Below, piece after piece: positions 758 through 29,464 of a stretch of DNA of 64,000 nt. This DNA is from Nitrospirota bacterium (GTDB lineage Bacteria > Nitrospirota > Nitrospiria > 2-01-FULL-66-17), in the NCBI GenBank assembly GCA_040757335.1, contig JBFLXB010000012.1, positions 15,246 to 79,245 on the forward strand, written 5' to 3'. Positions within the stretch are counted from its first letter, which is position 1; each line of letters starts with the position of its first letter. A program made the position numbers and the translations under genes. The notes below the pieces were generated by a model, which saw only the letters and a program-made list of their open reading frames with translations, did no database searches and had not been told where the DNA came from.

Positions 758-891
758 CAGCTCTCTCCTCGCGTTGTGGCCTGGTTCGGGCCGGGTCTCA
801 CGTTCAACGGGCTTAACTCTACGCGCCGACTTTGACGGGAACATGATCGGGATGTGACAATTCGATGAAATCGGAAGGGGCCTTGCGGAGC

Positions 892-927
892 GAAATCCCC
901 CCGGTTCCCCCCTTTTTTAAAGGGGGG
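892..927. repeat. C6/G6 hairpin element (GAAATCCCCCC-GGTT-CCCCCCTTTTTTAAAGGGGGG), copy 1 of 3.
   Basis: Palindromic CCCCCC-T6-AAA-GGGGGG immediately 3' of the histidine kinase gene. The same 35-bp element recurs at 46315..46349 and, inverted, at 46394..46429. Confidence 0.6.
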
Positions 928-947
928 CGCAGCCAGGGCCTGGACTG

Positions 948-2749: not shown

Positions 2750-2758
2750 AGCACCATC

Positions 2759-3544
2759 CTAGACCGGCTGGGTCACGGTGAGATCACGTGCGTGTGACGT
2801 TTCTGCGACGGCGGCCGCTTCGTCGGCCGTCAAAGCAGCGGGGCGGAGTGCCACCCCGAAGAGGCGCTCCCAGCTCGCAACCAGTGTTTGGCAGACCTCG
2901 ACCGGCGTGACGCTTTCACGATGCGCGCCCAGTCCGGTGATGGACTCCAACGCGTCCGGCTCGGCCGGGAAGAACTGCGAGACCTCCCGCGGATCGTACC
3001 GCAACAGGATCGATCCGTGCTGAAGGAAGGCGGTGGGCCACCGGCGCTGAGCGCTGCCCACGACCTTTTTCCCGTCGAGGGTCAGTTCGTTTCGGGAGGT
3101 TGCGGCGAAACAGAGCGGAGACCCCGAGGCCTGGCGCACGCGTTCGGCATCGCGGTCGCGCCGCGCGACGCGAAAGCCGAGCCGGACCAGCGCGGCTTCC
3201 AGGGCAACCCCGATGGTCTCGTACGTGCCGCGAATGGTGGGAGGGAAACACGGGTGCGGAACAGGAGCGACCACGCTGTACGTCACTTCGTGCCGGTGGT
3301 AGACGGCGCGGCCGCCGGTGGTCCGCCTGACCACGGGAACGCCGGCGTCGCGGCAAAGGTCGAGGTCGACGACCTGATCCGGCCGTTGGAAATACCCCAG
3401 TGAAATGGCGGGTCGGTCCCACCCATAGAGGCGGAGCGTGGGGCCGCTCGCGCCCCGACGGCAGGAGTCGACCAATGCCTCGTCCACGGCCATGTTGTAG
3501 GAGGCGGGAGACGGAGGATCGAGGATCAATCGCCAAGGGTCCAC
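2759..3544 (-). CDS. Lipoate-protein ligase / octanoyltransferase family protein (BPL_LplA_LipB catalytic domain).
   Basis: Approx. 260-aa protein with a BPL/LPL-type catalytic domain signature (RLYGWDRPAISLGYFQ ... RRTTGGRAVYH ... K-containing motif LDGKKVVGSAQRR). Confidence 0.7.
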   Translation of the reverse strand: MDPWRLILDPPSPASYNMAVDEALVDSCRRGASGPTLRLYGWDRPAISLGYFQRPDQVVDLDLCRDAGVPVVRRTTGGRAVYHRHEVTYSVVAPVPHPCFPPTIRGTYETIGVALEAALVRLGFRVARRDRDAERVRQASGSPLCFAATSRNELTLDGKKVVGSAQRRWPTAFLQHGSILLRYDPREVSQFFPAEPDALESITGLGAHRESVTPVEVCQTLVASWERLFGVALRPAALTADEAAAVAETSHARDLTVTQPV

Positions 3545-3666: not shown

Positions 3667-4488
3667 ATGCCGAAAGCCCGCACCATGCCCCTGGCCCTGA
3701 CCGTCGCGACCTCGGATTCCGGCGGCGGCGCGGGAATCCAAGGCGACATCAAGGCGATGGAGGCCAACGGCGTGTTCGCGCTGTCGGTGGTGGTCGCGGT
3801 GACGGCGCAGAACACCAAGGCGATCTCCCGGATCCATCCCTTGCCGCGCGCGGTGATCGAAGCGCAGCTCGACGCGGTTTTCGACGACTTTGCGATCGAT
3901 GCGGTGAAGACGGGGATGTTGTTCTCGGCCGATATCGTGCGCCTCACCGCCGAACGCCTGCGCAAGTGGTCGGCGCCTCATCTGGTCGTCGATCCGGTCA
4001 TGGTCTCGAAAACCGGCACGACGCTGCTCCAACCGGACGCCGTCGACGTCATGAGACGGCATCTGTTCCCGCTGGCGGAGGTGGTGACGCCCAACGTGCC
4101 CGAGGCGGAAGCGCTCCTCGGGACGCGGATCAGCTCCGTGGAGGAGGCGCGCGCGGCCGCGGCGGCGATCCATCGTCTGGGCTGCCGCGCGGTCTTGCTC
4201 AAAGGCGGCCATCTATCGTCGTCGCCGGCCACTGACGTGCTCTACGATGGCGCGACGTGGACCGTGTTCCCCGGCGAATGGATCGACGTGCCGCACACCC
4301 ACGGAACCGGCTGCGCGTATGGCGCGGCGATCGCCGCGCACCTTGCTCAGGGCGCGGACCTGACGGAGGCGGTGCGCGCGGCGAAACAATACGTGACGGC
4401 GGCGATCCGACACGGACTGGCCATCGGACACGGCCGGGGACCGGTTCACCACTTGTACCGATTGGCGGACGACGAAGGGAGTCAATAG
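3667..4488 (+). CDS. thiD: Hydroxymethylpyrimidine / phosphomethylpyrimidine kinase.
   Basis: [24 protein letters not shown]... is the canonical ThiD N-terminus, and ...[17 protein letters not shown] is the C-terminal motif. The ORF-track start at 3400 adds an implausible Arg/Pro-rich leader. ATGs at 3667 or 3685 are the likely starts. Confidence 0.85.
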
Positions 4489-4491
4489 ACC

Positions 4492-5136
4492 ATGTTTACG
4501 GGCATTATCGAAGAACTGGGCGTGGTCCAGGCGCTCGACCGGGGCCTGCAGTCCGCGGTCCTGACCATCCTTGCAAGGCGGATCATCAGCGGGATGAGGG
4601 TGGGGGACAGCGTCACGGTCAACGGCGTGTGCCTGACCGTGGTGCGATTCAGCGAGCAGGGGTTTGGAGTCGACGTGTCGCCCGAAACGCTGCGCGTGAC
4701 CGCGTTGGGAGGCCTGGCGCCGGGCGACGGGGTGAACCTGGAGCGGGCGGTGCGCGTCGGCGACCGGCTCGGCGGTCACCTGGTGAGCGGCCACGTGGAG
4801 GCGGTGGGCCGGGTGGTTTCTCGCGCGCCCGACGGCAACGCGGTCAACCTCACGATTGAGGCGCCCCGCGAGATCCTCCGCTACTGCGTGGGCAAAGGCT
4901 CGATCACGGTGGACGGCGTCAGCCTCACCATCACGGGGCTGACCGAGAAGACCTTCGGCGTGACCATCATTCCCCACACGGCGCAGGCCACCAACCTCGG
5001 ACTCAAGCCCCCAGGCGCGCTCGTGAATCTTGAGCCTGACCTGATCGCCAAATACGTGGAGCGTCTGTTGTTGGGGGGCGAGGTCAAGCCCGAGAAGGTG
5101 GACGCGGAGTTTTTGAGAAAACGGGGGTTGCTGTAA
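4492..5136 (+). CDS. ribE: Riboflavin synthase alpha chain.
   Basis: MFTGIIEELG...VNGVCLTV...SITVDGVSLTI shows the duplicated lumazine-binding repeats. Length is 214 aa. Confidence 0.9.
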   Translation: MFTGIIEELGVVQALDRGLQSAVLTILARRIISGMRVGDSVTVNGVCLTVVRFSEQGFGVDVSPETLRVTALGGLAPGDGVNLERAVRVGDRLGGHLVSGHVEAVGRVVSRAPDGNAVNLTIEAPREILRYCVGKGSITVDGVSLTITGLTEKTFGVTIIPHTAQATNLGLKPPGALVNLEPDLIAKYVERLLLGGEVKPEKVDAEFLRKRGLL

Positions 5137-5163: not shown

Positions 5164-5972
5164 GCCCCGTCAGCATTGCGCGCGCAGCGAAAGCCCACGT
5201 CGTTTAGTCGGCTGTTCGGGTCGGCGCCGAACCGGAAGCTTCCGCGCGCGTTATGTGCCAGGATCGCCTGGAGCGCGTCCGGTGCGAAGTGCCCGACGCC
5301 CGCCCATGACGACCCGCGCAGCACGCGGAGCGATGGGGTTCCGGCCGGCGCCGCGGCGGGGTTGCCGGGATACGGTTCATACCAATCCGCGGTCCACTCC
5401 CACACGTTTCCGACCAGATCGTGAACGCCCATCGGGCTCTGGCCGCTCGGGTAGCTCCCGACCGCGGTGGTTCCGCTTCTCGCGCCGCCAAGGTTGGCGC
5501 GGCTGAGTTCGAACCCGTCGCCCCACGGATACAGCCGGCCCTCGAAGCCGCGGGCGGCCTTTTCCCATTCGGCTTCCGTGGGCAGGCGTTTGCCCGCCCA
5601 CCGGCAATAGGTATCCGCGTCGTCCCACGTGACCGACGTCACGGGGTGCCGAGCCCGGCCCGGTGGGTGGCGCGCACCACGCCAGTCCGGCGGGGGCCGT
5701 CGCTGCGTGGCCTGCACGAACACCTGGTAATCCGCATTGGTGACCTCGAACTTGTCGAGGTAATACCCCGGAATGTTCGCGGTGTGAGCGGGGTGCTCGT
5801 CTTCGAACCACGGCTTGAGGATTCCATACTCCGCGGCCCGATGTTCGGTGTCCACCTGATCCGTCCCCATGACGAACGTCCCGCCGGGGATGTGGACCAT
5901 GCTGGGTGGAGTTGGGGTGCAGGCGATCGCGATGAACACCGAGAGGGCGAGGGGGAGAGTCACTTCGCGCAT
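5154..5972 (-). CDS. FGE-sulfatase (formylglycine-generating enzyme) family lipoprotein. It lacks the catalytic Cys pair.
   Basis: Start at the MREVTLPLALSVFIAIAC lipobox. Motifs WDDADTYCRWAGKRLPTEAEWEKAARG, ...LRGSSWA and ...GFRCA are present. There is no CxxxxC before RFG. The ORF-track N-terminal extension overlaps the upstream gene, so the true start was placed at 5972. Confidence 0.75.
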   Translation of the reverse strand: MREVTLPLALSVFIAIACTPTPPSMVHIPGGTFVMGTDQVDTEHRAAEYGILKPWFEDEHPAHTANIPGYYLDKFEVTNADYQVFVQATQRRPPPDWRGARHPPGRARHPVTSVTWDDADTYCRWAGKRLPTEAEWEKAARGFEGRLYPWGDGFELSRANLGGARSGTTAVGSYPSGQSPMGVHDLVGNVWEWTADWYEPYPGNPAAAPAGTPSLRVLRGSSWAGVGHFAPDALQAILAHNARGSFRFGADPNSRLNDVGFRCARNADGARG

Positions 5973-6982
5973 CGGAATCCGAATCCCTTGTTCTTGATCT
6001 CGGGCGCGAACCGGCTGCGGTTGTAGGCCGGGGAGCTGAGGCCGCACCCGTAGGACAGACAGTCGTACCACGACCCGCCGCGGAGCACTTTGTTCTTCGT
6101 GCCGTAGTGGACGTTCGGGAATTGATTGCCGGGATACGGTTGGTACCAGTCGGCCACCCACTCATACACGTTCCCGGCCATGTCTTCCACGCCTTCGGGG
6201 GTCCGGCCCTGGGGGAAGGAGCCCACCGGCAGGGTGTCGCCCGCGACGTGTTTGGTGAGCCAGTATTGCGGCGTGTTGGCCTTGAGCGGGGCGAATTCGT
6301 CGCCCCAAGGAAAGCGTCGTCCGTCGCCGCTGCGCGCGGCGCGTTCCCACTCGGCCTCGGTGGGCAGCCGCTTGCCGGCCCAGCGGCAGAACGCGTCGGC
6401 ATCGTGCCAATTCACGTACACCACCGGGTGATCGGCTTTGCCCTCGGGGAAGCGCCCCTCGATCCAGTGAAACGGGGGATCGCGACGGGTCGCGCGTACG
6501 AATGCCTCGTACATGGCGTTGGTCGTCTCGTACGTGTCGATCCGGAACGTCTTGACCTGCACCCGATGCTCGGGCCGCTCGTCTTCGTCGCCGGGCCCGT
6601 CATCGCCGCGCCCGTTGTTCCCCATGGTGAACTCGCCGCCGGGAATCGTGATCATGGATTGCTTGATCGGGGACGGCGTCGATGCGTCCGACCCTGTTGC
6701 CGCCACCCGTGCGAGCACCGGTTCGATGGTGACGCCTGGCGAACCGAACAGATGACATTCGGCGCAGGCGGGGTCGGTGGTTGGCTGGAGGGTGGGAATG
6801 CGCGCTCCCACGTGACAGCGGCCGCAGACCGTGTGCGTCGGGGGAGGGAGGGTGGGCGTCAGCGAGGGCGGATTCGAGGCCGGGTCAGCGGCGCTGGCGG
6901 CGCCCCACGCCGCCATGGGGACGCACGCCGCTACGAGCCAGCGCAAACCACGCCGGAACAGCCGAAAATGCACGCCAGCCAT
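5960..6982 (-). CDS. Diheme cytochrome c - FGE-sulfatase family fusion protein, secreted.
   Basis: Signal peptide. Two CxxCH motifs (CGRCH, CAECH). An FGE domain follows (WHDADAFCRWAGKRLPTEAEWERAAR, LRGGSWYDCLSYGC, GFRCAK) and retains a CxxxxC pair. It lies 7 nt upstream of the previous FGE-family gene. Confidence 0.75.
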   Translation of the reverse strand: MAGVHFRLFRRGLRWLVAACVPMAAWGAASAADPASNPPSLTPTLPPPTHTVCGRCHVGARIPTLQPTTDPACAECHLFGSPGVTIEPVLARVAATGSDASTPSPIKQSMITIPGGEFTMGNNGRGDDGPGDEDERPEHRVQVKTFRIDTYETTNAMYEAFVRATRRDPPFHWIEGRFPEGKADHPVVYVNWHDADAFCRWAGKRLPTEAEWERAARSGDGRRFPWGDEFAPLKANTPQYWLTKHVAGDTLPVGSFPQGRTPEGVEDMAGNVYEWVADWYQPYPGNQFPNVHYGTKNKVLRGGSWYDCLSYGCGLSSPAYNRSRFAPEIKNKGFGFRCAK

Positions 6983-17949: not shown

Positions 17950-18496
17950 CCAATCGGGAAAGCCAGGTCAAGTAACCCTAAAGGACGAGTATGGTGGTCG
18001 TGCTTCCCTGATCTGGGTATCCGCGGTCGCAGCAAGGGCTCATGACAGGAATTTCGCGCTCGCCTTAGAAAGGAAAGAAACTCATCCTCTTTGGCGAAAT
18101 ATTTCCCCAAACGCTGAGATGACCTGACCCGAACTCTGCGCCAATATATCTGTAGGGCTTTGAAATATAAATCGATTTTTCTACAGTTGGTTCTTCCGGT
18201 AGAGCAGGAACAAGAATTGCTTAAAACGTAACACGTTGCAGTAAGTCTATTTGCGCCGATTGGTCGGCGCCCATCAACGATCGCCCAGGCTGACCGCTTG
18301 CGGGGTGATCAAGGAATGAATGCATGTCGCGCGTTGTGCGAACCGCGCTGCACGTGGGGTTTCATTATTACGGCCGACCGAGCTACGTCTTGGGTCGGCC
18401 GTTGTGTTTTGTGAACAGGGGGGTTGGGCGGTCTTGCGTGTCCATTTGGCCGCGGAAATTCAACGGCCCGGTGTCATCCGAGGAGGAGTGCGGGTC

Positions 18497-21400
18497 ATGA
18501 AGCGTAAGGTCTTACTTTGGGCAGGGATGCTCTCCGTTGCTCTGGCGGGAGTCGGATTCGCCGCGACCGGGAACGAGCAGATCGCGCCGAACCAGCCCGA
18601 GTACACGCTGGGCGACACCGCGGTCATCTACGGCACCGGGTTCGAGCCGGGCAGCTCGGTGATTGTCGAGGTGATCCGGGCGGACGGGAGCATCGTCACT
18701 GGAGCTGGAACCGAGACCCCTGGCAGCGACACTGTCACCGCGAACTTGACCGGCGCGTTTACGTACCACTACCTGATCGACGGCGGGCCGGTGTCGGCCT
18801 ACAACGGGATCCTGACCGTCAACGCGAAGGATGCCAGCACGTTGGCCGTGCTCGCGACGACGACGTTTCTCGATGGCACGCAATTCTTGCTTCAAGGGTG
18901 CTCCAAGGATCGGGGCGATTGCACGCTCGACAGCCCCGCGACCGGGTGGGCCGGTGGGGCGACGCCCATGACGGGGTGGACGTCGGGACATCTGGAGGGC
19001 TGGTTTGACGGTGACGACGTGCCCTATCGCCTCAGAATCGGGTTGCGCGACGAGGGGAGCGCCGGACCCAAGTATTTCACGACCATCCACGACAACATGA
19101 GAAATGGGATTCTTGGCATCACCAGCGCTGGCAACTTCTACGTCGGGTACGGGCCGGTGGGTTCCCTGGAGGGGACGCTGACCAAGACCTGCCGGTTGCA
19201 GGCGTCGGGGAGCGCCGTCCCGACCGTTTCGGATCCCTGCATCGTCACCGGCCCCTCGTACAGCGGCGGTGACGGGAGCGGGCCGACACCCAGGCAGATT
19301 GAGTACGCGTGGGCGGTGCTGTTCGATCCAGACGAGGATGGAGGCAGCGATAAGAAATGGGCGGTGTACTGGACCGGCCACCTGGACGCAGGAGCGCACA
19401 ACTGGCCCGGGTCGTCGCTCCACACCAGCACCACCGCGTCGGGCAGCCAGGACGTGCCCATCGACGACATCGAGGACGATGCTCCGTCGGGCGCGAACCT
19501 GTCGATCACAAAGACCGATACGCCGGACCCCGCGTATGTCGGGGAGAACCTGATCTACACGCTCACGGTGACCAACAACGGCCCCAGCTCCGCCACCAAC
19601 GTCAAGGTGACGGACACGCTCCCGACCACGGTGACCTACGTGTCCGCGACCGCGAGCCCGGGGACGCCTGACACCTGTTCAATGATGGGCGGCACGGTGA
19701 CGTGCAACCTAGGCACCCTCGCCAACGCAGCGACCGCCACGGTGACGATCGTGGTGACGCCGATGTCGGCCGGCACACTGTGCAACAGCGCGATCGTGTC
19801 CAGCCACACGTCGGATCCGACACCCGGCAATAACAACGCCAAGGCAACGACCACGGTGTATCCTTCGGCGAACCTGTCGATCGTCAAAAACGACTCGCCG
19901 GATCCGGCTTACGTCGGCGAGAATCTGACGTACACGATGACGGTGTACAACGCCGGACCCAATACCGCCACCAACGTGTCGGTGACCGATACGTTGCCCG
20001 CCGGTGTGGATCTGGTCACGTTCTACGTCAGCCAAGGGACCGGCTGCACGCAAGGGACCGGGACCGTCACGTGCAACCTGGGGACCCTGACGAAGTGGTC
20101 AAGCGCAACGGTAACGATCGTCGTGAAACCCACCACGGCCGGAACGCTGACCAACACGGCCGCCGTGTCGAGCACCACGCATGATCCGAGCTCAGGCAAC
20201 AACACCTCGACGGCGACGACCACGGTCTATCCGTCGGCTAATTTGTCCATCACCAAGACCGGGCCCAGTACGGGGATCGTCGGACAGTCCATTAGCTACA
20301 CGATCGTGGTGTCGAACGCGGGGCCGAGTGCGGCCACGGGGGTGAGTGTGACCGATAACCTGCCGGCGGGTGTGACGTATGGGTCGGCGTCGTGGACGGG
20401 TGCATCAACGGGCACGTGTACTTTCGCTAGTCCGACCGTGACGTGCAGCATCGGGACGTTGGCGAGCGGGGCGTCCGTGACGATAACAATCACCGTGACG
20501 CCGACGGTGAACGGGACGCTCAACAACAGCGCCACCGTGTCATCGCCGACCTGGGACCCCACGCCGGGCGACCACACCACGCCGCCGGTCACGACCACGG
20601 TCACCTCGTCGGCGGACTTGGCGATCACGAAGAGCGGCCCCGGTTCCGCGACCGTGGGTGCGCCGTTTAGTTACACGATCGGGGTGTCGAACGCTGGGCC
20701 GAGTGCCGCCACGGGGGTGAGTGTGACGGACAGTCTGCCGACGGGCTTGACGTACGGCTCAGCAACGTGGACCGGCGCGTCGTCGGGGACCTGTACGTTT
20801 TCCAGCCCGACCGTGACGTGCAGCATCGGGACGTTGGCGAGCGGGGCGTCCGTGACGATAACAATCACCGTGACGCCGACAGTGAACGGGACGCTCAACA
20901 ACAGCGCCACCGTGTCGTCGCCCACGCCGGACCCCAACTCGGGCAACAACACTACGCCTCCGGTATCAACCACCGTCACTTCCTCGGCGGACCTGACGAT
21001 CTCGAAGTTCGGACCCAGTACCGCGACCGTGGGGCAGCCGATGGCGTACACGATCGGGGTGTCGAATGCGGGGCCGAGTCCGGCCACCGGCGTGACGGTG
21101 ACGGACACCCTGCCAGCGGGCGTGACGTACGGGTCGGCAACGTGGACCGGCGCATCGTCGGGGACGTGCGCGTTTGCCAATCCGACGGTGACGTGCAGCA
21201 TCGGCACGTTGGCGAGCGGGGCGTCGGTGACGATCACGATCACGGTGACGCCCACGGCCACGGGAACGCTCAACAACAGTGCCACCGTGTCGTCGCCCAC
21301 ATCGGATCCCACGCCGGGTGACCACACCACGCCGACGGTGCAAACGACGGTGAGTGGAACCCCGTCGACCGGGCCGCTGGGAGGCAACGCCTTCAGCAAC

Positions 21401-21532
21401 GCCGGCGGGGCCATGAGTTCGACAAACTACCAACTCATTACCGGGGTGGCGGGCCAGGGCATCGGCCAGGGCAGCCAGAGCACGAATTATGGGCTGGATG
21501 CCGGCTATGCGCCTGGGGTAACCGGGGGTTAG
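18497..21532 (+). CDS. Large secreted protein with six or more DUF11 (conserved repeat domain) repeats and a distinctive Gly/Gln-rich C-terminal tail.
   Basis: GGAGGA RBS and ATG at 18497. Signal peptide MKRKVLLWAGMLSVALAGVGFA. Repeats of about 115 aa: ANLSI(T/V)K(T/N)D.PDPAYVGENL.YT.TV.N.GP..ATNV.VTDTLP...TC.LGTL. The C-terminus is ...SSTNYQLITGVAGQGIGQGSQSTNYGLDAGYAPGVTGG. Confidence 0.85.
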   Translation: MKRKVLLWAGMLSVALAGVGFAATGNEQIAPNQPEYTLGDTAVIYGTGFEPGSSVIVEVIRADGSIVTGAGTETPGSDTVTANLTGAFTYHYLIDGGPVSAYNGILTVNAKDASTLAVLATTTFLDGTQFLLQGCSKDRGDCTLDSPATGWAGGATPMTGWTSGHLEGWFDGDDVPYRLRIGLRDEGSAGPKYFTTIHDNMRNGILGITSAGNFYVGYGPVGSLEGTLTKTCRLQASGSAVPTVSDPCIVTGPSYSGGDGSGPTPRQIEYAWAVLFDPDEDGGSDKKWAVYWTGHLDAGAHNWPGSSLHTSTTASGSQDVPIDDIEDDAPSGANLSITKTDTPDPAYVGENLIYTLTVTNNGPSSATNVKVTDTLPTTVTYVSATASPGTPDTCSMMGGTVTCNLGTLANAATATVTIVVTPMSAGTLCNSAIVSSHTSDPTPGNNNAKATTTVYPSANLSIVKNDSPDPAYVGENLTYTMTVYNAGPNTATNVSVTDTLPAGVDLVTFYVSQGTGCTQGTGTVTCNLGTLTKWSSATVTIVVKPTTAGTLTNTAAVSSTTHDPSSGNNTSTATTTVYPSANLSITKTGPSTGIVGQSISYTIVVSNAGPSAATGVSVTDNLPAGVTYGSASWTGASTGTCTFASPTVTCSIGTLASGASVTITITVTPTVNGTLNNSATVSSPTWDPTPGDHTTPPVTTTVTSSADLAITKSGPGSATVGAPFSYTIGVSNAGPSAATGVSVTDSLPTGLTYGSATWTGASSGTCTFSSPTVTCSIGTLASGASVTITITVTPTVNGTLNNSATVSSPTPDPNSGNNTTPPVSTTVTSSADLTISKFGPSTATVGQPMAYTIGVSNAGPSPATGVTVTDTLPAGVTYGSATWTGASSGTCAFANPTVTCSIGTLASGASVTITITVTPTATGTLNNSATVSSPTSDPTPGDHTTPTVQTTVSGTPSTGPLGGNAFSNAGGAMSSTNYQLITGVAGQGIGQGSQSTNYGLDAGYAPGVTGG

Positions 21533-21615
21533 CGGGGTCCCACGTCCGACGGATACACGGATACAATGAATGTCACAGACTCACATACACGCGATGGGGG
21601 AGGGGGAATGAGGCC

Positions 21616-22902
21616 ATGAAGATGACGCAGAGAATTGGAATCCTTGGAGTGCTGGTGGCAAGCCTAGTCATTATGGGAGGCCTGGCCCAGGCCCAGGTCC
21701 CCCAACTCATCAACTACCAAGGGGTGCTGAAGAACGGCGGGGGAACCCCGATCACGGGGACGGTGAGCGTCACGTTCTCGATCTATTCGGGTCCCTCGGG
21801 GGGCACCGCGCTCTGGAGCGAAACCCAGAGCGTGGTCGTCACGGGTGGACTATTCAATGTGTTGCTGGGCTCCTCCACCGCGTTCCCGGCGTACTTCTTT
21901 CAGGGCACCACCCCGGATCGCTATCTCGGGGTAAAGGTCGGAAGCGATCCGGAGATGACGCCGCGGCAGCGGCTGGTCAGCGTGGGATACACGCTCAAGG
22001 CCGAGGATGCGGACAGCCTGGGAGACCGGATTGCGATTACAGACAAGCCCAATCAACGGGTTGGAGTTGGAACGTTGAGTCCCCAAGCGAAACTTCACGC
22101 CGAAGTCACCAGCCCGGCTGGTGAAGGGACGATGTGGGCCATCCAGACGCTCAGTAATTCGTCTCCCTTGCCGAGCACTATTGATACAGCCCTCAGGTTG
22201 CGGATCAACGACCAGAGCACGGCCAATATTCTTTCCAAACAGGTGTTTCGGTTGATCTACTTCCGGGATGCGGCGGCGACTGGCTCGGTCACCGATTTTG
22301 ATTCGACAATGGTGCTGGCCAACTTCATCAATTCGAATGCGCCGTACTCCCTACGTGGAATTACGGTCGAGGGGCCGCAAATCGCCACTGGGAGAACCCT
22401 GAATGAGTTCATTGGGCTGTTTGTTCGGGAGCCTTCGGTAACGGGCACGATCGCGAGTAACAAGGCCATCGTCACAGACCCCAGGGCTGGCAATATCGGG
22501 TTTGGGGTAACGAACCCCACCGAGCGTCTGGAAGTCGCGGGCAATGTCCGCGCGACCGCGTATCTCACCGGGAGTTCGCGAGAGTTGAAAAAGGGCATCA
22601 CGCCTCTCGGGCAAAACGACTACGCCAAGATCATGGATCAGATTAACGACTTGCAGATGGTCCGGTATCTGTATAAGACAGAGGACAATCGGCAGCCTCA
22701 CCTCGGCGTGATCGCGGAAGAGTCTCCGAAAGAGATTCTCGATGAAACCGGGAAGGCCGTCAGTCTAGCCGACTATGCGGGATTCATTCTGGCGGGCTTG
22801 AAGGCGCAGTCCGAGGAGATTCAGGCGCTCAAGGCGCACATTCGGGACTTGGAATCCAAACTTCCCGCGCCCGAGAATCAGGCCGCTGCACGAGTCGAGT
22901 GA
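21616..22902 (+). CDS. Secreted tail-fiber-like protein with a C-terminal Peptidase_S74 (endosialidase intramolecular chaperone) domain.
   Basis: Signal peptide. The N-terminal QLINYQGVLKNGGGTPITGTVSVTFSIYSG is typical of tail-fibre domain proteins. The C-terminal block SSRELKKGITPLGQNDYAKIMDQINDLQMVRYLYK...HLGVIAEESPKEIL...ADYAGFILAGLKAQSEEIQALKAHIRDLE matches the S74 autoprocessing chaperone domain. Confidence 0.75.
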   Translation: MKMTQRIGILGVLVASLVIMGGLAQAQVPQLINYQGVLKNGGGTPITGTVSVTFSIYSGPSGGTALWSETQSVVVTGGLFNVLLGSSTAFPAYFFQGTTPDRYLGVKVGSDPEMTPRQRLVSVGYTLKAEDADSLGDRIAITDKPNQRVGVGTLSPQAKLHAEVTSPAGEGTMWAIQTLSNSSPLPSTIDTALRLRINDQSTANILSKQVFRLIYFRDAAATGSVTDFDSTMVLANFINSNAPYSLRGITVEGPQIATGRTLNEFIGLFVREPSVTGTIASNKAIVTDPRAGNIGFGVTNPTERLEVAGNVRATAYLTGSSRELKKGITPLGQNDYAKIMDQINDLQMVRYLYKTEDNRQPHLGVIAEESPKEILDETGKAVSLADYAGFILAGLKAQSEEIQALKAHIRDLESKLPAPENQAAARVE

Positions 22903-22973
22903 GTTGCCTATAGCCACCCGGCTGGGCTGCTGGAGCCTCAACGCAGTTTCTCGGCCGTCTCCGCCGGCACTTC

Positions 22974-25238
22974 GTGAAAATCGCTCTTCGGGCCGGCTTG
23001 ATCGCGATGGTCATGGCGATCGTCATTGCTTCCGGCGACGTGGCGTGGTCCGTGGTTCCGCCGGGCGATTCCGCCGGACCGACACCGGTCGTGACCGCGG
23101 ATCGCGCGCCTGCCGAAGTCGTCGTTCGATTCAAACAAGGCACCACCTCAGGGGACAAAGAGCGAGCCCACATCGAGACTGACACCGAGGTCCTCTCGGA
23201 AATCCCTCGCCTGCGAATGGAGCGGCTGAGGTCAAAGCGGGGTGAGTCGGTGGACGCGCTGCTGCGATCCTTCGCCCAGAACCCTAACGTCGAGTACGTC
23301 GAGCCCAACTATATCGTGACGGCGTCAGCCGTGCCGAACGATCCGCGCTTCTCGGACCTGTGGGGCCTTCACAATATCGGTCAAACCGGCGGCATGGTCG
23401 ATGCGGATATCGACGCCCCCGAGGCGTGGGACCTCCAGACCGGAAGCAGCGGTCTCGTTGTGGGGGTGATCGACAGCGGGATCGACTACAACCACCCGGA
23501 TCTTACCGCGAATGTCTGGACCAACCCGGGAGAGGTCGCGGGCAACGGAATTGACGACGATCACAACGGGTACGTTGACGACATCCGTGGGTGGGACTTC
23601 GTCAATAACGACAACAACCCATTGGACGATTACGGGCATGGCACGCACGTCTCGGGCACGATCGGGGCGGTCGGGAACAACGGCGTGGGAGTGGTTGGCG
23701 TGGCCTGGCAGCTCAAGATCTTGCCCGTGAAGTTTCTGGACGCCACGGGGACGGGCACGTCGTTCGACGCCGCCTCCGCCATCGTCTACGCCGCGGACAT
23801 GGGCGCGAAGGTGCTGAACGCCAGTTGGGGGTGCTCCAATTGCTTTCCGCAAGTTGTGGAAAACGCGATTGCTTACGCCGATCAACAGGGGGTGGTGTTC
23901 GTGGCGTCGGCGGGCAACGAGGCCACGAACAACGATGTGATCCCGTCCCATCCCTGCGGATCCAGCCAGCCGAACGTGCTCTGCGTGGCGGCCACCACTG
24001 CTCAGGACGGTTTGGCGTCGTTCTCGAACTACGGCGCAGCCACGGTGGACTTGGGGGCGCCGGGGGTCAGTATTCTGTCCACGGTGCCTAATGGCGGATG
24101 TGCGTTCTGCGCGCCGTCACGGTATCTGTACGCCAGCGGCACCTCCATGGCCGCGCCTCACGTCGCGGGGGCGGCCGCCCTCGTGTTCAGCGAGAGCCCC
24201 ACGCTTTCGGTCGCTGAGGTCAAGCAGGCGATACTGGATACCGTCGATCCCGTGCCCGCCTTGGCCGGGGTGACGATGACTGGAGGAAGGCTCAACGCGG
24301 CAGCGGCCCTGGCGCAGGTCGGCCCTGTCGACCTGACCATGACCGATGTAACGCCGAACGCCGCGTCGGTCAATGCGGGGAGCACGCTATCGGTCTCTGA
24401 TACGACTTTCAACCAAGGGACCAGTGCAGCGGGGAGTTTCACGATCGCGTATCACCTGTCCACCAACACGAGTTCCGGCGATGGCGACGATATCGCGATC
24501 GCCACCACGCGGGCAGTGGGCTCCCTGGGCGGCGGTGCGTCGAACGTGGCCTCCACCGCGCTGGCGATCTCAGGGGGAACGCCTGCCGGGAACTATTACG
24601 TGTGCGCGATCGCTGATGCTGCGTCCGCCGTCATCGAAACGAACGAGGCCAACAACGCCCTCTGCAGTCCATCGACGGTCACGGTTCCCCCGCCGGATCT
24701 GATCGTGACCTCGGTCTTCACCGGGTCATCCGTGTTGGCGCCTGGAGACGCGTTCAATGTCTCTGACAGCGTTGCCAATCAAGGTGGATCGGCGGCTGGA
24801 GCCTTTCTGGTCGACTTTCATCTGTCGTCGGATCCGGCCTATGGCGGCACGGACGACATCACGTTGAGCGCCACGCGACCAGTGCCCTCGCTCAGTGCGG
24901 GAGCCACCAGCAGTGGGGCCACCACACAGACGATCCCGTTGACGGCACCCCTCGGCAATTACTACGTGTGCGCCAAGGCGGACAGCGGGAACGCAGTCTC
25001 GGAGGGCACGGCCGAGTCCAACAACACCCTGTGCAGCGCCCCCACGATCAGAGTGGCAATCCCGTCCACGAATCTGGGCGGAAGCGGAAGCAGCAGTACG
25101 GGCGGTGGGTCCATCGCCTCGTCGTCGTACCGGATGGAGCCGGGCGTGGTGGGCCAGGGCGTGGCGGGTTCAGGAGGGCAGAGTGCGGGCTACCAGCTTG
25201 AATCCGGATTTGGAGCCCAGATCGTTGGGCAGCAGTAA
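22974..25238 (+). CDS. Secreted subtilisin-like S8 serine protease with an I9 propeptide and two CARDB domains. Its C-terminal tail is shared with the DUF11 protein.
   Basis: GTG start with signal peptide. Triad motifs VIDSGIDYNHPDL, HGTHVSGTIG and GTSMAAPHVAGAAAL. Two roughly 115-aa CARDB repeats end in ...NYYVC(A)(I/K)AD...E.NN.LCS. The C-terminus is ...SSSYRMEPGVVGQGVAGSGGQSAGYQLESGFGAQIVGQQ. Confidence 0.85.
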   Translation: MKIALRAGLIAMVMAIVIASGDVAWSVVPPGDSAGPTPVVTADRAPAEVVVRFKQGTTSGDKERAHIETDTEVLSEIPRLRMERLRSKRGESVDALLRSFAQNPNVEYVEPNYIVTASAVPNDPRFSDLWGLHNIGQTGGMVDADIDAPEAWDLQTGSSGLVVGVIDSGIDYNHPDLTANVWTNPGEVAGNGIDDDHNGYVDDIRGWDFVNNDNNPLDDYGHGTHVSGTIGAVGNNGVGVVGVAWQLKILPVKFLDATGTGTSFDAASAIVYAADMGAKVLNASWGCSNCFPQVVENAIAYADQQGVVFVASAGNEATNNDVIPSHPCGSSQPNVLCVAATTAQDGLASFSNYGAATVDLGAPGVSILSTVPNGGCAFCAPSRYLYASGTSMAAPHVAGAAALVFSESPTLSVAEVKQAILDTVDPVPALAGVTMTGGRLNAAAALAQVGPVDLTMTDVTPNAASVNAGSTLSVSDTTFNQGTSAAGSFTIAYHLSTNTSSGDGDDIAIATTRAVGSLGGGASNVASTALAISGGTPAGNYYVCAIADAASAVIETNEANNALCSPSTVTVPPPDLIVTSVFTGSSVLAPGDAFNVSDSVANQGGSAAGAFLVDFHLSSDPAYGGTDDITLSATRPVPSLSAGATSSGATTQTIPLTAPLGNYYVCAKADSGNAVSEGTAESNNTLCSAPTIRVAIPSTNLGGSGSSSTGGGSIASSSYRMEPGVVGQGVAGSGGQSAGYQLESGFGAQIVGQQ

Positions 25239-25256
25239 GTTGACGGATTTGCCAGA

Positions 25257-25366
25257 ATAATGCTACATGGTCACCTGTTCATAATATGAACAGATCTAGC
25301 TTTCGGGCCGCGCGTGGCTGTCGGCCCTTTCTCTGATCCTCTGTTTTCAGCATAGAACTAACGCCC
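25257..25366. repeat. Roughly 110-bp intergenic repeat, copy A1. It contains the 19-bp palindrome CTGTTCATAATATGAACAG (25276..25294).
   Basis: About 80% identical to 26653..26760. It begins AATAATGCTACATGGTCACCTGTTCATAATATGAACAG and ends ...GGCCCTTTCTCTGAT...TTCAGCATAGAACTAACGCC. Confidence 0.7.
25276..25294. promoter_or_regulatory. Perfect 19-bp palindromic operator-like site (CTGTTCAT-AAT-ATGAACAG) upstream of the acyltransferase gene.
   Basis: An 8-bp perfect inverted repeat arm, duplicated upstream of the next gene as well. This is typical of a dimeric wHTH regulator site. Confidence 0.45.
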
Positions 25367-25525
25367 AGCGCATTTAGCCCGAGAATATATGAACATCGTC
25401 ATGAGATGGGGATGCAGATCTCCCAGAATGGACCCTGCGGTAATTCAGCTCCAAACCCTATGAAGAATTCGCTATAGGAGACAGGTTCGAGGCAGTATGG
25501 ATCAGTTTGTCGTGTTGGGCGTTAG

Positions 25526-26641
25526 GTGCAAGGGATGATGGGGTTCCTGAGATTTACCCTTGCGATGTTTGTGGTAACCGCGCATCTGACTGAAGGTGTG
25601 CGGTTCTTTTCACATTGGGGGGTGTTTGCAGTCTTCGGTTTTTACCTTATCTCCGGCTATCTGATGACCCTGATCCTTCATGAGACATATTCGTTTAGAT
25701 TTTCGTCGTTTGTGTTGAACAGATTCTTGCGCTTATTCCCGATCTACTATCTTGTGGCAGTTGTTTCGGCATATCTTATCCTGTCTGTACCAGCGTCTGC
25801 TGACTTTCTCTCGGTATGGGAAGTTAAATATCGAGCATCAGACTTTTTGGGGAATGGACTAATCTTCCCTTTTGAGTTCTACGATGCGTCTTTCCGCATA
25901 GTGCCGTCCACGTGGTCTATAGCCGTCGAGCTAATCAACTACTTTCTGCTTTGGTTGGTTGTTGCACGAAGTCGCTCCTTAGCACTTTCTACCGTATTGC
26001 TCACGATAACCTACCACGTCGTTACCCTTGCAGTGGGGATGGACTGGAGTAGCCGATACCGCCCTTTTTATGCAGCGCTTCTCCCATTTTCTCTGGGGGC
26101 ATGCATTTATTTCTGCCGTGATCAATTAGCGCGCTTGTCGATCTCTACTATTCGATATGTAGCCTTCGGTTCATTCCTGGTTTGGGTCGCGAATCTGATT
26201 CTTTGTGGTGTTGTGGCAGGGATGGGGGGGCCTCACTTTGACACCTTCTACTACTGGAACCTGGTCTCCTTGCTAGCTCTTATCTCTTGTCTAACCACTT
26301 CATCCCTGAAGTCTCTGTCCCCAAGGTGGGGAAAGATTTTTGGCGACCTGGCGTACCCGGCCTTTCTCACCCACTGGATCATTGGATTCGCCGTAAGTCT
26401 TTTCGTGCTAGGGGGGCAGAGGAGGGGTCTAGCGCTACTGGCTCTGTCTGTATTTCCGATACTTGCGGTGTCGTTTGCCCTAGCGTGGTCAGCTGACCGC
26501 TGGCTCGAGCCGTTGCGGGACAAGGTGCGAAGAAAAGTGGCTCTGCCCGCTACGGTCAGTTCAGGGCAAAGCAAATTTGAGAGAGTCTTCAGGAAGTCCT
26601 TTGGGTGGCTTAGGGTGTCCGGCGTGGACAATTCAGATTGA
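25526..26641 (+). CDS. Acyltransferase family 3 (OatA/OafA-like) integral membrane O-acyltransferase. Low-GC gene.
   Basis: N-terminal ...FVVTAHL..GV.FFSHWGVFAVFGFYLISGYLM motif (AT3 family) and about 10 TM helices. GC is roughly 48% against about 65% in the flanks. Confidence 0.8.
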   Translation: MQGMMGFLRFTLAMFVVTAHLTEGVRFFSHWGVFAVFGFYLISGYLMTLILHETYSFRFSSFVLNRFLRLFPIYYLVAVVSAYLILSVPASADFLSVWEVKYRASDFLGNGLIFPFEFYDASFRIVPSTWSIAVELINYFLLWLVVARSRSLALSTVLLTITYHVVTLAVGMDWSSRYRPFYAALLPFSLGACIYFCRDQLARLSISTIRYVAFGSFLVWVANLILCGVVAGMGGPHFDTFYYWNLVSLLALISCLTTSSLKSLSPRWGKIFGDLAYPAFLTHWIIGFAVSLFVLGGQRRGLALLALSVFPILAVSFALAWSADRWLEPLRDKVRRKVALPATVSSGQSKFERVFRKSFGWLRVSGVDNSD

Positions 26642-26652
26642 CGGATCGGCGG

Positions 26653-26760
26653 AATAGTGGTACATCGTCACCTGTTCATATTATGAACAGGATTTGATTG
26701 CGGGCTGCAGGTAATCCTCGGCCCTTTTTCTGATTCTTGGTGTTCAGACTATGAACGCCT
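26653..26760. repeat. Roughly 110-bp intergenic repeat, copy A2, containing the palindrome CTGTTCATATTATGAACAG (26672..26690).
   Basis: See copy A1. It is directly upstream of the regulator gene. Confidence 0.7.
26672..26690. promoter_or_regulatory. Second copy of the 19-bp palindromic operator-like site, upstream of the Rex-like regulator gene.
   Basis: CTGTTCAT-ATT-ATGAACAG lies 87 nt upstream of the regulator start. Confidence 0.45.
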
Positions 26761-26776
26761 CGTAGTCATCGGGAAT

Positions 26777-27364
26777 GTGATGAGAAAAGACGACAGCTTT
26801 CATCTCTTCCGCATCCTGGACGAACTCTCCAAGAACGGGGAGGTGACCCAGCGGGGGTTGAGCCGGCGGCTCGGGGTGGCCTTGGGATTGACCAATTTGT
26901 ACGTGAGGCGGCTTGGGAAGAAGGGCCTGATTAAAGTGGTCAACCTCAAAGCGAACCGCCTCCGGTACGAACTGACGCCCAGCGGCATCGCGCAGAAGAC
27001 CGCGATGGCGTTTCAATACGTTCAGGATTCCTACGTGTTCTACCGCGAGGCGCGACGGACGCTGACCGCAACATTCGAGGCGATGAAGAGGACGGGGGTA
27101 CGGTCGGTGGTGCTGTATGGAGCAGGGGACCTCGCCGAGATCGCGCTGCTTTCGCTGCAGGAGGCTGATCTCGACCTGACCGGCGTGGTGGGCCTAAAAC
27201 ACCAGGGGCAGTCGCTGTGCGGGAAGCCGGTGGCCGACCCCGCGTCGCTGGCGTCGATTGAATACGACCGGGTAGTGGTGGTAGAGCGCGAGCGAGAAGA
27301 CGCGATGAAATGTCTGGCGGATCTGGGAGTGGACGGTTCGAAAATCGTTTGCGTGGGAGTGTGA
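26777..27364 (+). CDS. Winged-helix transcriptional regulator with a C-terminal Rossmann-like domain (Rex-like architecture).
   Basis: N-terminal wHTH (FHLFRILDELSKNGEVTQRGLSRRLGVALGLTNLYVRRL) followed by VRSVVLYGAGDLAEIALLSL (GxGxxA dinucleotide-fold start). About 195 aa. Confidence 0.55.
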   Translation: MMRKDDSFHLFRILDELSKNGEVTQRGLSRRLGVALGLTNLYVRRLGKKGLIKVVNLKANRLRYELTPSGIAQKTAMAFQYVQDSYVFYREARRTLTATFEAMKRTGVRSVVLYGAGDLAEIALLSLQEADLDLTGVVGLKHQGQSLCGKPVADPASLASIEYDRVVVVEREREDAMKCLADLGVDGSKIVCVGV

Positions 27365-27374
27365 GCAGCAAGCC

Positions 27375-28172
27375 ATGAAATCCCAGGTGATGGGTGTCTG
27401 GCACTATCGCCACTTTATTCTCTCCTCCATCCGGAACGAGTTTCGCTCGCGGTTTATCCGCAGCCGCCTTGGCGGGCTGTGGATGATCATTCATCCCCTG
27501 GCCCAAGCCGCCATTTTCGCGCTGGTGCTGAGCCAAGTGATGGCCGCGAGGCTACCGGGTATGGCCGGAGACAAGTTTGCTTACGCCGTCTATCTTCTGT
27601 CCGGAATACTCGCCTGGTCGTTGTTTTCAGAGGTGATCGGCCGTTGCGTCACCCTATTCATCGACAATGGCAATCTGCTCAAGAAGATCGCGTTTCCCCG
27701 AATCAGCCTGCCGTTGATCGTGGCCGGCTCCGCGCTCGTCAACAACCTCCTCTTGTTTCTTGCCATCATCGTCGTCTTCGGTGTGCTGGGCCACGTACCC
27801 GGCATCCAGATCGCCTGGGTTCCGCTATTAATGCTGCTCACCTTGGCGCTCGGGCTTGGGGTCGGGATACTGCTCGGCGTGTTCAACGTATTTATCCGCG
27901 ATGTGGGGCAGGTGGTGCCGGTAGCGCTGCAACTGGGCTTTTGGTTCACCCCCATCATCTATCCTCCGAATGTTGTTCCGGAAGCCCTGCGCCCGATAAT
28001 GAACCTGAACCCCATGGCTATGGTGGTCCAGAGTTTCCACAAGGCCCTTCTCTTCAACACGTCTCCCGAGTTCGTTAGTCTGGGGGTGGTTCTTCTGGTT
28101 ACTTTTGCGTTGTTGGGTATGGCGCTCAGCGTTTTTCGGCGTGCCGGTGCCGAAATGGCGGATGTGTTGTGA
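27375..28172 (+). CDS. wzm: ABC-2 type polysaccharide export permease.
   Basis: About 265 aa with six TM helices. The N-terminal ...RNEFRSRFIRSRLGGLWMIIHPL matches the ABC2_membrane signature. It precedes the ATPase with a 4-nt overlap. Confidence 0.85.
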   Translation: MKSQVMGVWHYRHFILSSIRNEFRSRFIRSRLGGLWMIIHPLAQAAIFALVLSQVMAARLPGMAGDKFAYAVYLLSGILAWSLFSEVIGRCVTLFIDNGNLLKKIAFPRISLPLIVAGSALVNNLLLFLAIIVVFGVLGHVPGIQIAWVPLLMLLTLALGLGVGILLGVFNVFIRDVGQVVPVALQLGFWFTPIIYPPNVVPEALRPIMNLNPMAMVVQSFHKALLFNTSPEFVSLGVVLLVTFALLGMALSVFRRAGAEMADVL

Positions 28173-29464
28173 GCGCTCCGATGATCGAGGTCGAGAACAT
28201 CGGCAAATCGTTCCGGACGTATTCGAGCCAATGGCACCGCTTCCGAGGGTGGTTCGGAGCGGGTCCTCGGCGATACGCTGATCACTGGGTGTTGCGAAAC
28301 GTCTCATTTGCAGTCGGGGCGAGCGAATCCATCGGTATCCTCGGCCGTAACGGTGCGGGGAAGAGCACCCTCCTCAAGCTGATCGTCGGGACCCTCGCAC
28401 CCTCTGAAGGCCACGTGAAGGTCGGGGGCCGCATCAGCGCGATCCTCGAATTGGGGATGGGCTTCAACGCCGAATTCACCGCCCGCCAAAATGTCCTGTA
28501 TGGATGTGGACTGTTGGGCTACAACCGGGACGAAATCGAGTCGGCGATGCCGGAAATCGAACGCTTCGCCGATATCGGTGAGTATTTTGATCAACCCCTA
28601 CGCACCTCCTCCAGCGGCATGCAGATGCGGGTAGCGTTCGCGGCCGCTACCGCGTTTCGCCCGGACGTGCTGATCGTGGACGAAGCTCTTTCGGTGGGCG
28701 ATCTCTTTTTTCAAGCAAAGTGTTTCGAGCGGATCGGCGAGATGAAGGCGTCTGGTACCACGCTGCTCTATGTGTCACATGCGGCGGGAGATATTGCGAA
28801 ACATTGCGAGCGTGCCCTGTTCATCAAGGAGGGCAGGCTCCTCATGGATGGGCCGGCACGTGAGGTCTCAAATGTGTACCTGGACGATCTCTTCGGAAAG
28901 AGCGCGCCCCACCAAAGAACCGTACGATCAGCTCAGGCTGCTAACGAAACACGGTTTGCCGCAGATAACGTCGAGCGCTTCCACACGCGGCCTTTTTACC
29001 GAAAAGACGAGCATCGGTGGGGTGTTGGCGGGGGACGTGTTCTCGATTTCTTGGTCGAGGTCGATGGCGAAGCATTTCCTTCCGCTATCTATTCACATCA
29101 AAGGATGCGAGTCTCGTTTAAGGTTCATTCTGAGCAGGAACTCGCGAAGCCCATATACGGGTTGCTGATCAAGACGATCGAGGGGATCTACGTCTACGGT
29201 ACCAACTCCAAATTTGCGCAACCAGGAGTGACCCCGTCGTCCGTACCTGCGGGCGATAACCGGGTGGTGTCGTTCGAATTTCCCATGATGTTGAACACTG
29301 GGGCTTACCTGATTTCCCTGGGAGTCTCGAATGAGGATGACAGCGGGCAGGTCGTGCCCATCGATCGGCGGTATGACTCTGTCCTGATAACGGTGACGAA
29401 CGGGCAGCAGGGATCGGGGCTTGTCGATCTTGCAGCCCAATTTGAATGCCACAAGGCCGCATGA
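28169..29464 (+). CDS. wzt: Polysaccharide export ABC ATPase with a C-terminal O-antigen terminus-binding (Wzt_C-like) domain.
   Basis: Walker A GRNGAGKST, the LSSGMQMRVAFAAA signature, and Walker B LIVDEALSVGD. About 180 extra C-terminal residues form a beta-rich domain as in E. coli O9a Wzt. Confidence 0.85.
   Translation: MSAPMIEVENIGKSFRTYSSQWHRFRGWFGAGPRRYADHWVLRNVSFAVGASESIGILGRNGAGKSTLLKLIVGTLAPSEGHVKVGGRISAILELGMGFNAEFTARQNVLYGCGLLGYNRDEIESAMPEIERFADIGEYFDQPLRTSSSGMQMRVAFAAATAFRPDVLIVDEALSVGDLFFQAKCFERIGEMKASGTTLLYVSHAAGDIAKHCERALFIKEGRLLMDGPAREVSNVYLDDLFGKSAPHQRTVRSAQAANETRFAADNVERFHTRPFYRKDEHRWGVGGGRVLDFLVEVDGEAFPSAIYSHQRMRVSFKVHSEQELAKPIYGLLIKTIEGIYVYGTNSKFAQPGVTPSSVPAGDNRVVSFEFPMMLNTGAYLISLGVSNEDDSGQVVPIDRRYDSVLITVTNGQQGSGLVDLAAQFECHKAA

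Follow-up and report, generated by a model that had tools for sequence, protein, structure and literature searches.

What is an element of about 110 base pairs (bp), built around a perfect palindrome, doing on both sides of a single acyltransferase gene? The question is raised by a 64,000-nucleotide (nt) stretch of DNA from a Nitrospirota bacterium (assembly GCA_040757335.1, contig JBFLXB010000012.1), which as a whole is referred to here as the window. One copy of the element lies upstream of a gene for an AT3-family acyltransferase, and the other separates that gene from an operon comprising a winged helix-turn-helix (wHTH) regulator and the glycan exporter genes wzm and wzt. An original prediction had read the palindrome as the operator of a Rex-like repressor, possibly responsive to NADH, that had been duplicated together with its promoter when the acyltransferase gene arrived. 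The explanation that we favor, with a probability of roughly 0.78, is that the element is the native promoter-operator region of a MarR-like repressor and was duplicated by the insertion of the acyltransferase gene.

The two copies form a direct repeat, at 25240-25353 (114 nt) and 26638-26750 (113 nt), in which 87 of 115 aligned columns are identical (76%); their local alignment scores 56, whereas 300 shuffles gave at most 15. The size originally proposed for the element therefore stands, and the accompanying figure of about 80% identity was slightly generous. The copies resemble each other (74%) more than either resembles the corresponding sequence of any relative (at most 68%). A profile hidden Markov model of the element and its relatives recovers exactly two full copies in the window, both on the + strand: copy 1 matches model positions 5-122 (nhmmer, E=3.7e-24), and copy 2, the putative functional leader of the regulator-wzm-wzt operon, matches positions 8-136 (E=4.9e-28). 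Copy 1 begins 2 nt past the stop codon of an S8 peptidase gene and lies 182 nt 5′ of the acyltransferase ATG. The start of copy 2 falls within the stop codon of the acyltransferase, and its end lies 30 nt 5′ of the regulator ATG (26780).

Each copy contains the same 19-nt palindrome, CTGTTCAT-N3-ATGAACAG, for which the chance expectation is 0. As had been described, the two occurrences differ only in the central triplet, reading CTGTTCAT-AAT-ATGAACAG in copy 1 (25275-25293) and CTGTTCAT-ATT-ATGAACAG in copy 2 (26672-26690); the respective sequences, CTGTTCATAATATGAACAG and CTGTTCATATTATGAACAG, are mutually reverse complementary across 20 nt. No further match was found in the 64 kb with up to two mismatches allowed, and there were 0 in 100 shuffles. 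We call these sites, which are assigned to neither strand, O1. In copy 1 the core of O1, GTTCA-N5-TGAAC, occupies 25277-25291, and O1 of copy 2 lies over the predicted transcription start. Exact cores occur only three times in the window, all inside the two copies. The third, GTTCAGACTATGAAC (26742-26756) in copy 2, belongs to a second unstranded site, O2 (TGTTCAGACTATGAACG, 26741-26757), the first base of the core lying 38 nt 5′ of the regulator ATG, and this is where most members of the regulator family have their single operator. O2 is absent from the original prediction, as is a GC-rich hairpin that each copy contains, with a T run behind it, and the two features make the arrangement less simple than a promoter with one operator; this hairpin and the central 8-3-8 palindrome are the only inverted repeats in the element.

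A predicted promoter, read from the sequence, precedes O1 in both copies on the + strand. In copy 1 (P1, 25240-25269) it consists of a −35 box, TTGACG, at 25240-25245, an 18-nt spacer and an extended −10, TGc-TACATG, at 25264-25269; it is kept in relatives and failed a strict consensus scan. In copy 2 (26638-26666) the −35 box, again TTGACG, is at 26638-26643 and is followed by a 17-nt spacer and TGg-TACATC at 26661-26666. The proposal that the operator was duplicated together with its promoter is borne out by both the alignment and the profile search. Copy 1 retains both promoter boxes, a perfect O1 and the hairpin. Its O2 has decayed: the sequence at 25345-25359 (TTTCAGCATAGAACT, unstranded), of which the left part falls within the copy, fails the core match and marks the duplication endpoint.

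Proposed operator sites ahead of the regulator gene

To place the element in a comparative setting, DNA was fetched around homologues of the regulator gene. Close relatives (62-80% protein identity) carry a leader of about 130 nt directly 5′ of the regulator gene, regardless of which gene lies upstream. It begins with TTGAC(G/T), followed by 17-18 nt containing a conserved GGAATAATG block, an extended-10-like TGnTA(C/T) and, 5-6 nt further on, O1; 3′ of O1 come a GC-rich hairpin with a T run and then O2 (GTTCA-N5-TGAAC), which starts 27-58 nt (31-38 nt in most) 5′ of the ATG. In every relative, with or without an insertion, the element is present as a single copy at the orthologous place 5′ of the regulator. 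By this comparison, the element is best described as the native 5′ control region, or leader, of the regulator-wzm-wzt operon.

The wider family shows the same association. A scan of species-representative genomes returned at least 531 relatives of the regulator, of which the best 80 were kept as loci; a metagenome scan with the regulator protein alone gave 4 loci. In 77 of the 80 loci the 200 bp ahead of the regulator gene contain an exact GTTCA-N5-TGAAC core, and the density of cores is sharply uneven, with 89 sites in the 16.7 kb of upstream regions versus 2 in everything else from these loci (714 kb). These loci span at least five lineages (Nitrospirota, Omnitrophota, Planctomycetota, NC10 and deltaproteobacterial metagenome-assembled genomes), among which the intergenic sequence is otherwise unalignable. 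Among the three exceptions, L021 still has an exact core, preceded by a TTGAC box, at a distance of 906 nt upstream; the approximately 0.8 kb between core and regulator (4000-4900) contains a + strand open reading frame (ORF) with no Pfam match and looks, by eye, like an inserted element with a minus-strand ORF.

The placement of the core relative to the promoter is equally regular. A TTGAC box lies 20-29 or 37-39 nt 5′ of the core at 73 of 91 sites. The spacing is 20-22 nt at 58 sites, which puts the −10 within the palindrome, and 26-29 nt at 9 sites, so that the palindrome abuts the −10; in the clade of the window it is 37-39 nt, and the palindrome there covers the predicted +1. All three classes are predicted repressor positions. 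The conserved site has the consensus T-GTTCA-N5-TGAAC-R, with an invariant core and variable flanks, and its half-site centers are 10 bp apart, about one helical turn, as expected of a two-fold symmetric wHTH dimer. On the protein side, the recognition helix GVALGLTNLY is invariant in the regulator family down to 36% overall identity, which would match the invariance of the core. Because the core occurs in 77 of 80 upstream regions across phyla, over the −10/+1 of a TTGAC promoter, autoregulation is the best reading, as the original prediction had it, and the comparative evidence that the palindrome is the autoregulatory operator of the wHTH regulator is strong.

The link between protein and site is a comparative one, and the site might instead be bound by another, unlinked transcription factor, the wHTH regulator recognizing something else; the GGAATAATG block found between the two promoter boxes in the clade of the window shows that the leader contains other conserved sequence. 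We regard this as most unlikely, given that the motif tracks the regulator gene through at least five lineages and several types of downstream operon (wzm/wzt, or a NusG paralogue and a Wzx-type gene in L062, the one such locus annotated), is nearly absent from the rest of the 714 kb of neighboring DNA, and has an invariant core fitted by an invariant recognition helix.

Several variations on the leader were seen in individual loci. The assembly GCA_040960215.1 holds two paralogous regulator-headed wzm loci, L101 and L102, whose leader layouts differ; in L101, the terminator is 5′ of P1 and a single operator stands 12 nt before the ATG. In L094 and L095, the gap between wzm and wzt contains an operator-like site with one mismatch, GTTCAGAGTATGAAT (4917-4931). 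Another one-mismatch site, TTTCAnTCCGTGAAC, is conserved approximately 420 nt (about −421) 5′ of the regulator start in L027, L031, L033 and L062 and may be an auxiliary operator.

The regulator protein

The regulator (26780-27364, + strand, GC content 0.61) is a 194-residue protein with an N-terminal MarR-like wHTH domain, a long linker helix and a small C-terminal Rossmann-like domain; its sequence is 100% identical to that of an NCBI protein from a Nitrospirota metagenome-assembled genome. Its best-supported Pfam assignment is HTH_24, at 40.5 bits against a cutoff of 21.9. MarR and MarR_2 fall below their thresholds (22.2 versus 24.6 and 23.5 versus 27 bits), the C-terminal domain gives a weak C2185-like_N match, and MarR-model matches are weak or sub-threshold in all 21 homologues. 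The best NCBIfam match, to TIGR04176, covers residues 9-92 only (E=4.8e-17; 61.9 bits versus a cutoff of 88). In an AlphaFold2 model with a predicted local distance difference test score of 87, the chain folds as a wHTH, a 38-residue helix and a small beta-alpha-beta domain. When the model was compared with known structures using Foldseek, the N-terminal domain matched MarR structures with probability 1.0 and a root-mean-square deviation of 1.6-2.9 Å over approximately 85 residues, and the C-terminal domain matched 2g6t (CAC2185-like). The HTH_24 score and the Foldseek matches make the regulator a plausible DNA binder. By sequence it appears to belong to an uncharacterized family that is related to TIGR04176 and has an added Rossmann-like domain; a literature search found nothing on this family or its site.

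The layout has clear parallels among MarR-type repressors. MarR with marO, MepR and PcaV share the winged-helix domain of the window regulator, and in such systems, as in the window, a palindromic operator, sometimes present as two sites, lies over the −10/+1 of the repressor's own promoter, and the regulator gene comes first in the operon that it controls. Unlike MarR proteins, the window regulator lacks the N- and C-terminal dimerization helices and has instead the linker helix of about 38 residues and the Rossmann-like domain. To our knowledge, the GTTCA-N5-TGAAC half-site has never been described for any MarR protein. The TIGR04176 family, annotated as MarR family exopolysaccharide (EPS)-associated transcriptional regulators, has in common with the window regulator its occurrence at exopolysaccharide loci; its members are, however, proteins of about 105 residues with no C-terminal domain. 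Our literature search found no paper characterizing TIGR04176.

The label "Rex-like" did not hold up. In overall architecture Rex and the window regulator resemble each other, with a winged helix at the N terminus, a Rossmann-type domain carrying a Gly-rich loop at the C terminus, and repression from a dimeric palindromic operator, which for the window regulator is predicted. The C-terminal domain of the window regulator is, unlike that of Rex, only about 90 residues long. The two Rex domains, Put_DNA-bind_N (PF06971) and CoA_binding (PF02629), have no match in the window protein at E≤1; no Rex domain is among the 25 Pfam families listed, of 30, for the 21 family members at the same threshold, and no Rex chain is among the matches listed in the PDB sequence and Foldseek searches. 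The Rex operator is TTGTGAA-N6-TTCACAA, from which the T-GTTCA-N5-TGAAC-R site differs. A Gly-rich loop is present in the regulator (YGAGDLAE; GAGDLA). At the end of beta2, where NAD(H)-type domains have an acidic residue, 13 of 21 aligned homologues carry Asp; the window protein has Gly at this position (VVGLK), and its close relatives have Ser or Cys. The suggested response to NADH thus finds no specific support in the protein sequence. Another candidate for the site, an E. coli-type LexA box (CTGT-N8-ACAG), was set aside on spacing, which here is CTGT-N11-ACAG.

The terminator-like hairpin

Between O1 and O2 the leader contains a second structural feature. In copy 1, a hairpin at 25305-25337 (+ strand) has the form GGGCCG-N11-CGGCCC followed by TTTCTCTGAT and is predicted to fold with −22.1 kcal/mol (z=−2.4); in copy 2, the hairpin at 26702-26735 (+ strand), GGGCTG-N11-CGGCCC followed by TTTTTCTGATT, is predicted to fold with −26.4 kcal/mol (z=−5.0). 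As RNA, these read GGGCCG-N11-CGGCCC with UUUCUCUGAU for copy 1 and GGGCUG-N11-CGGCCC with UUUUUCUGAUU for copy 2. Both have the form of an intrinsic terminator, a GC-rich stem-loop directly followed by a U run. A generic terminator scan flagged the palindrome as terminator-like and missed both hairpins because their loops exceed 8 nt. A hairpin with a U run occupies the same place in 9 of 10 relatives that were folded, making 11 of 12 sequences with the window copies, and the stems vary (GGGCYG/CGGCCC, CCGAAC/GUUCGG, GGCCGAC/GUCGGCC, AAGGCC/GGCCUU and GGAAU/AUUCC). The hairpin looks like a predicted intrinsic terminator located after the promoter. It could serve in attenuation, insulate the operon from upstream genes, or be the relic of a lost gene.

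This conservation of the hairpin after O1, with differing stems, gives some standing to the idea that the palindrome acts as RNA or as non-template-strand DNA, either as part of an attenuator with the terminator hairpin or as a loading site for a NusG paralogue of the UpxY, RfaH or LoaP type, the wHTH protein being incidental. In the clade of the window most of O1 would be transcribed, and it folds as a stem of 8-9 bp; moreover, a NusG paralogue is encoded just 3′ of the regulator in 53 of the 80 loci, and the one examined, in L062, passes the UpxY cutoff. Much of the sequence evidence is nevertheless difficult to reconcile with a role in RNA. At the 58 sites where the −35 lies 20-22 nt before the core, the left arm would be 5′ of the predicted start and so not in the RNA at all. 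The core is invariant in sequence and shows no covariation, and the positions adjacent to it are mostly non-complementary (T before and G after; T and C inside). The motif is kept in 26 of 27 loci without a nearby NusG paralogue, no NusG paralogue was found in the 64-kb window, and a search of 24500-27500 against Rfam (E≤10) returned noise only. We consider this explanation improbable. The terminator part of it may be real, and is compatible with an operator at O1 and O2 without replacing it.

The resemblance to polysaccharide antitermination systems is one of setting. With UpxY/UpxZ, RfaH-ops (JUMPStart) and LoaP, the window locus shares a long polysaccharide operon and a leader with a terminator-like hairpin; its element differs in being a DNA palindrome that overlaps the promoter rather than an ops-like signal on the non-template strand. 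We know of no regulator of this wHTH type in the described UpxY, RfaH or LoaP systems, and a literature search returned nothing relevant on Nitrospira UpxY or on MarR-wzm-wzt operators. An RfaH ops-like sequence, GGCGG...TG, can be read in copy 2 and was rejected, being missing from copy 1 and from relatives.

The NusG paralogue is itself a recurrent feature of the Nitrospira branch, where it lies 0.6-2.3 kb after the regulator start in L062 and 52 other loci (L019-L089). In L062, where it occupies 5613-6149 and scores 125.9 bits against NF033644 (UpxY family; cutoff 100), a Wzx-type flippase and glycosyltransferases follow 3′ of it, and a regulator-antiterminator pair heads the polysaccharide locus.

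The acyltransferase insertion

How did the leader come to be present twice? The acyltransferase gene (25535-26641, + strand, Acyl_transf_3 in Pfam) has a GC content of 0.50, compared with 0.64 for the S8 peptidase gene and 0.61 for the regulator gene, and the description of a low-GC gene bracketed by the repeat was accurate. At third codon positions its GC content (GC3) is 0.56, versus 0.67-0.78 in its neighbors. In L006 and L007, whose regulator is 72% identical to that of the window, the genes run in the order DUF11, S74, S8, leader, regulator, wzm, wzt, with a single leader and no acyltransferase, and no homologue of the window acyltransferase is found within 5 kb in any of the 80 genome loci. 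Its best homologues (64-68% identical) are mostly unnamed metagenome proteins, the only named one coming from a metagenome-assembled genome of Methylococcaceae, and named hits at 53-55% come from Pseudomonas and Acidovorax. The two homologues that were examined lie in unrelated gene contexts. DNA similarity to the homologues is confined to the coding region, 25534-26530. The ORF continues for about 37 codons beyond this homology (26530-26641; homologues have 331-349 residues), the tail being local sequence, and its TGA stop is formed within the −35 box, TTGACG, of copy 2. Since L006 and L007 lack the gene, the nearest homologues are proteobacterial and GC3 sets it apart from its neighbors, the repeat is best understood as the footprint of an insertion, as first suggested, and the acyltransferase as horizontally acquired. 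Integration of the Campbell type through the leader would fit, as would a tandem duplication with subsequent replacement.

Direct repeats flanking a single compositionally foreign gene also call to mind a mobile or site-specific recombination system that moved the acyltransferase, with the repeats as integron attC-like ends, ends of miniature inverted-repeat transposable elements (MITEs) or a target-site duplication rather than regulatory DNA. A second leader, that of L097, likewise contains an accessory PhyH gene between O1 and the hairpin; that insertion, however, occurred without duplication. The element is single-copy at the orthologous place in all relatives and present only twice in the window, no integrase or transposase lies next to the repeat, 113 nt is far too long for a target-site duplication, and homologues of the acyltransferase elsewhere have no such repeat flanks. 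A mobile origin of the repeats is accordingly very improbable. An integron attC cassette in particular was rejected, as the inverted repeats of attC ends (R''/L''...L'/R') are not found and there is no adjoining integrase-like ORF.

Several further traces lie around these insertions. The PhyH (phytanoyl-CoA dioxygenase family) gene of L097 occupies 2452-3495, between the P1/O1 and terminator/O2 modules, and splits the leader profile match into positions 16-82 and 86-135, with the gap between O1 and the hairpin; it is a second case of an accessory gene within a regulator leader. In three close relatives, L094-L096, a gene pair for O-acetylation, MBOAT and AlgX-like, stands just 5′ of the leader (594-3165), so that O-acylation genes recur beside the regulator in different forms. 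Within the window, directly after copy 1, GAACTAACGCCCAGCG (25355-25370) matches the regulator coding sequence at 26969-26984 (codons YELTPS) in 15 of 16 nt; it could be what is left of a truncated regulator copy carried along in that first duplication, or a coincidence (E about 0.009 in a small comparison). A regulator pseudogene beside copy 1 was considered and rejected, the match being limited to these 16 nt. Between copy 1 and the acyltransferase start, the −10 region recurs in part a third time, as GAATATATGAACATCGTCA (25383-25401), with 79% identity to GAATAGTGGTACATCGTCA of copy 2.

Taken together, these data suggest the following model. A sigma-70-type promoter (TTGACG, 17-18 nt, TGnTAC...) would drive the operon, with O1 covering the predicted start and O2 about 68 bp downstream, just before the regulator start codon. 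Most likely, the MarR-like wHTH regulator binds O1 and O2 as a dimer and represses its own operon, and a ligand sensed by the C-terminal Rossmann-like domain would presumably relieve repression. The horizontally acquired acyltransferase gene entered the leader at O2, with leader positions of about 5-122 being duplicated and a duplicate promoter, O1 and hairpin left behind, so that copy 1 would now drive the acyltransferase, and copy 2 the regulator and exporter. The duplication has probably placed the acyltransferase under the same control as the exporter. Co-regulation of O-acylation with glycan export, the other part of the original prediction, is a reasonable expectation because copy 1 keeps its −35, its −10 and a perfect O1.

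A number of observations weigh against this model. Copy 1 has no O2, and the two copies may therefore be regulated differently. In the window, the −10 hexamers, TACATC and TACATG, lack the consensus final T, and a generic promoter scan found no promoter. A terminator-like hairpin stands between P1/O1 and the regulator gene, and no convincing second promoter was seen by eye between hairpin and O2 in the window. Many of the 80 loci come from related Nitrospira genomes and are hence not independent, although they vary in their flanks and stand for at least five lineages. Finally, it is by co-occurrence that the site is assigned to the regulator protein.

The surrounding genes are those of a surface-glycan locus. 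Downstream of the regulator, wzm (27375-28172, ABC2_membrane) and wzt (28169-29464, ABC_tran and Wzt_C), both on the + strand, encode, by Pfam, a glycan ATP-binding cassette (ABC) exporter, and the order regulator, wzm, wzt is the same in relatives. Upstream of the element, a run of large secreted or surface proteins (18320-25238), syntenic with L006 and L007, comprises a 1070-residue DUF11/CARDB repeat protein, a protein with an S74 intramolecular-chaperone domain and the S8 subtilase with CARDB domains (22974-25238, + strand; Peptidase_S8 and CARDB in Pfam). In this setting the acyltransferase resembles the AT3 O-antigen acetyltransferases of the Oac, OafA and GtrC type, likewise single membrane acyltransferases, foreign in composition, that joined a surface-glycan locus as accessory, serotype-modifying genes. 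It differs from them in lying off any prophage or island and in being embedded in the operon's own leader with a duplicated promoter-operator.

A broader picture can be sketched, which we hold only tentatively and on balance doubt. The leader would be a recurrent docking point that captures glycan-modifying genes, such as the AT3 gene here and PhyH in L097, between promoter/O1 and terminator/O2 and so under the exporter's repressor. The regulator would be a widespread sensor (at least 531 hits) that had so far gone unrecognized, whose Rossmann-like domain reads a nucleotide-sugar, acyl-CoA or dinucleotide pool and which gates surface-polysaccharide synthesis jointly with the terminator in the leader and, in Nitrospira, with an UpxY-type NusG paralogue.

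The mechanism that we favor is an ordinary one, a promoter-operator duplication accompanying an insertion by which the acyltransferase inherits the control region of the exporter. The principle is not new, autoregulated winged-helix repressors and accessory AT3 genes both being familiar. What the locus adds is a concrete cis-element, T-GTTCA-N5-TGAAC-R, and a promoter architecture for an uncharacterized regulator family that heads surface-polysaccharide loci in Nitrospira, which are key nitrifiers, and in other Nitrospirota, Omnitrophota, Planctomycetota and NC10, all of them groups with nearly unstudied gene regulation and difficult genetics. It also indicates that a foreign O-acyltransferase can be joined to an existing regulon when the native promoter-operator is duplicated, and regulated glycan (serotype) variation could plausibly arise in this way.

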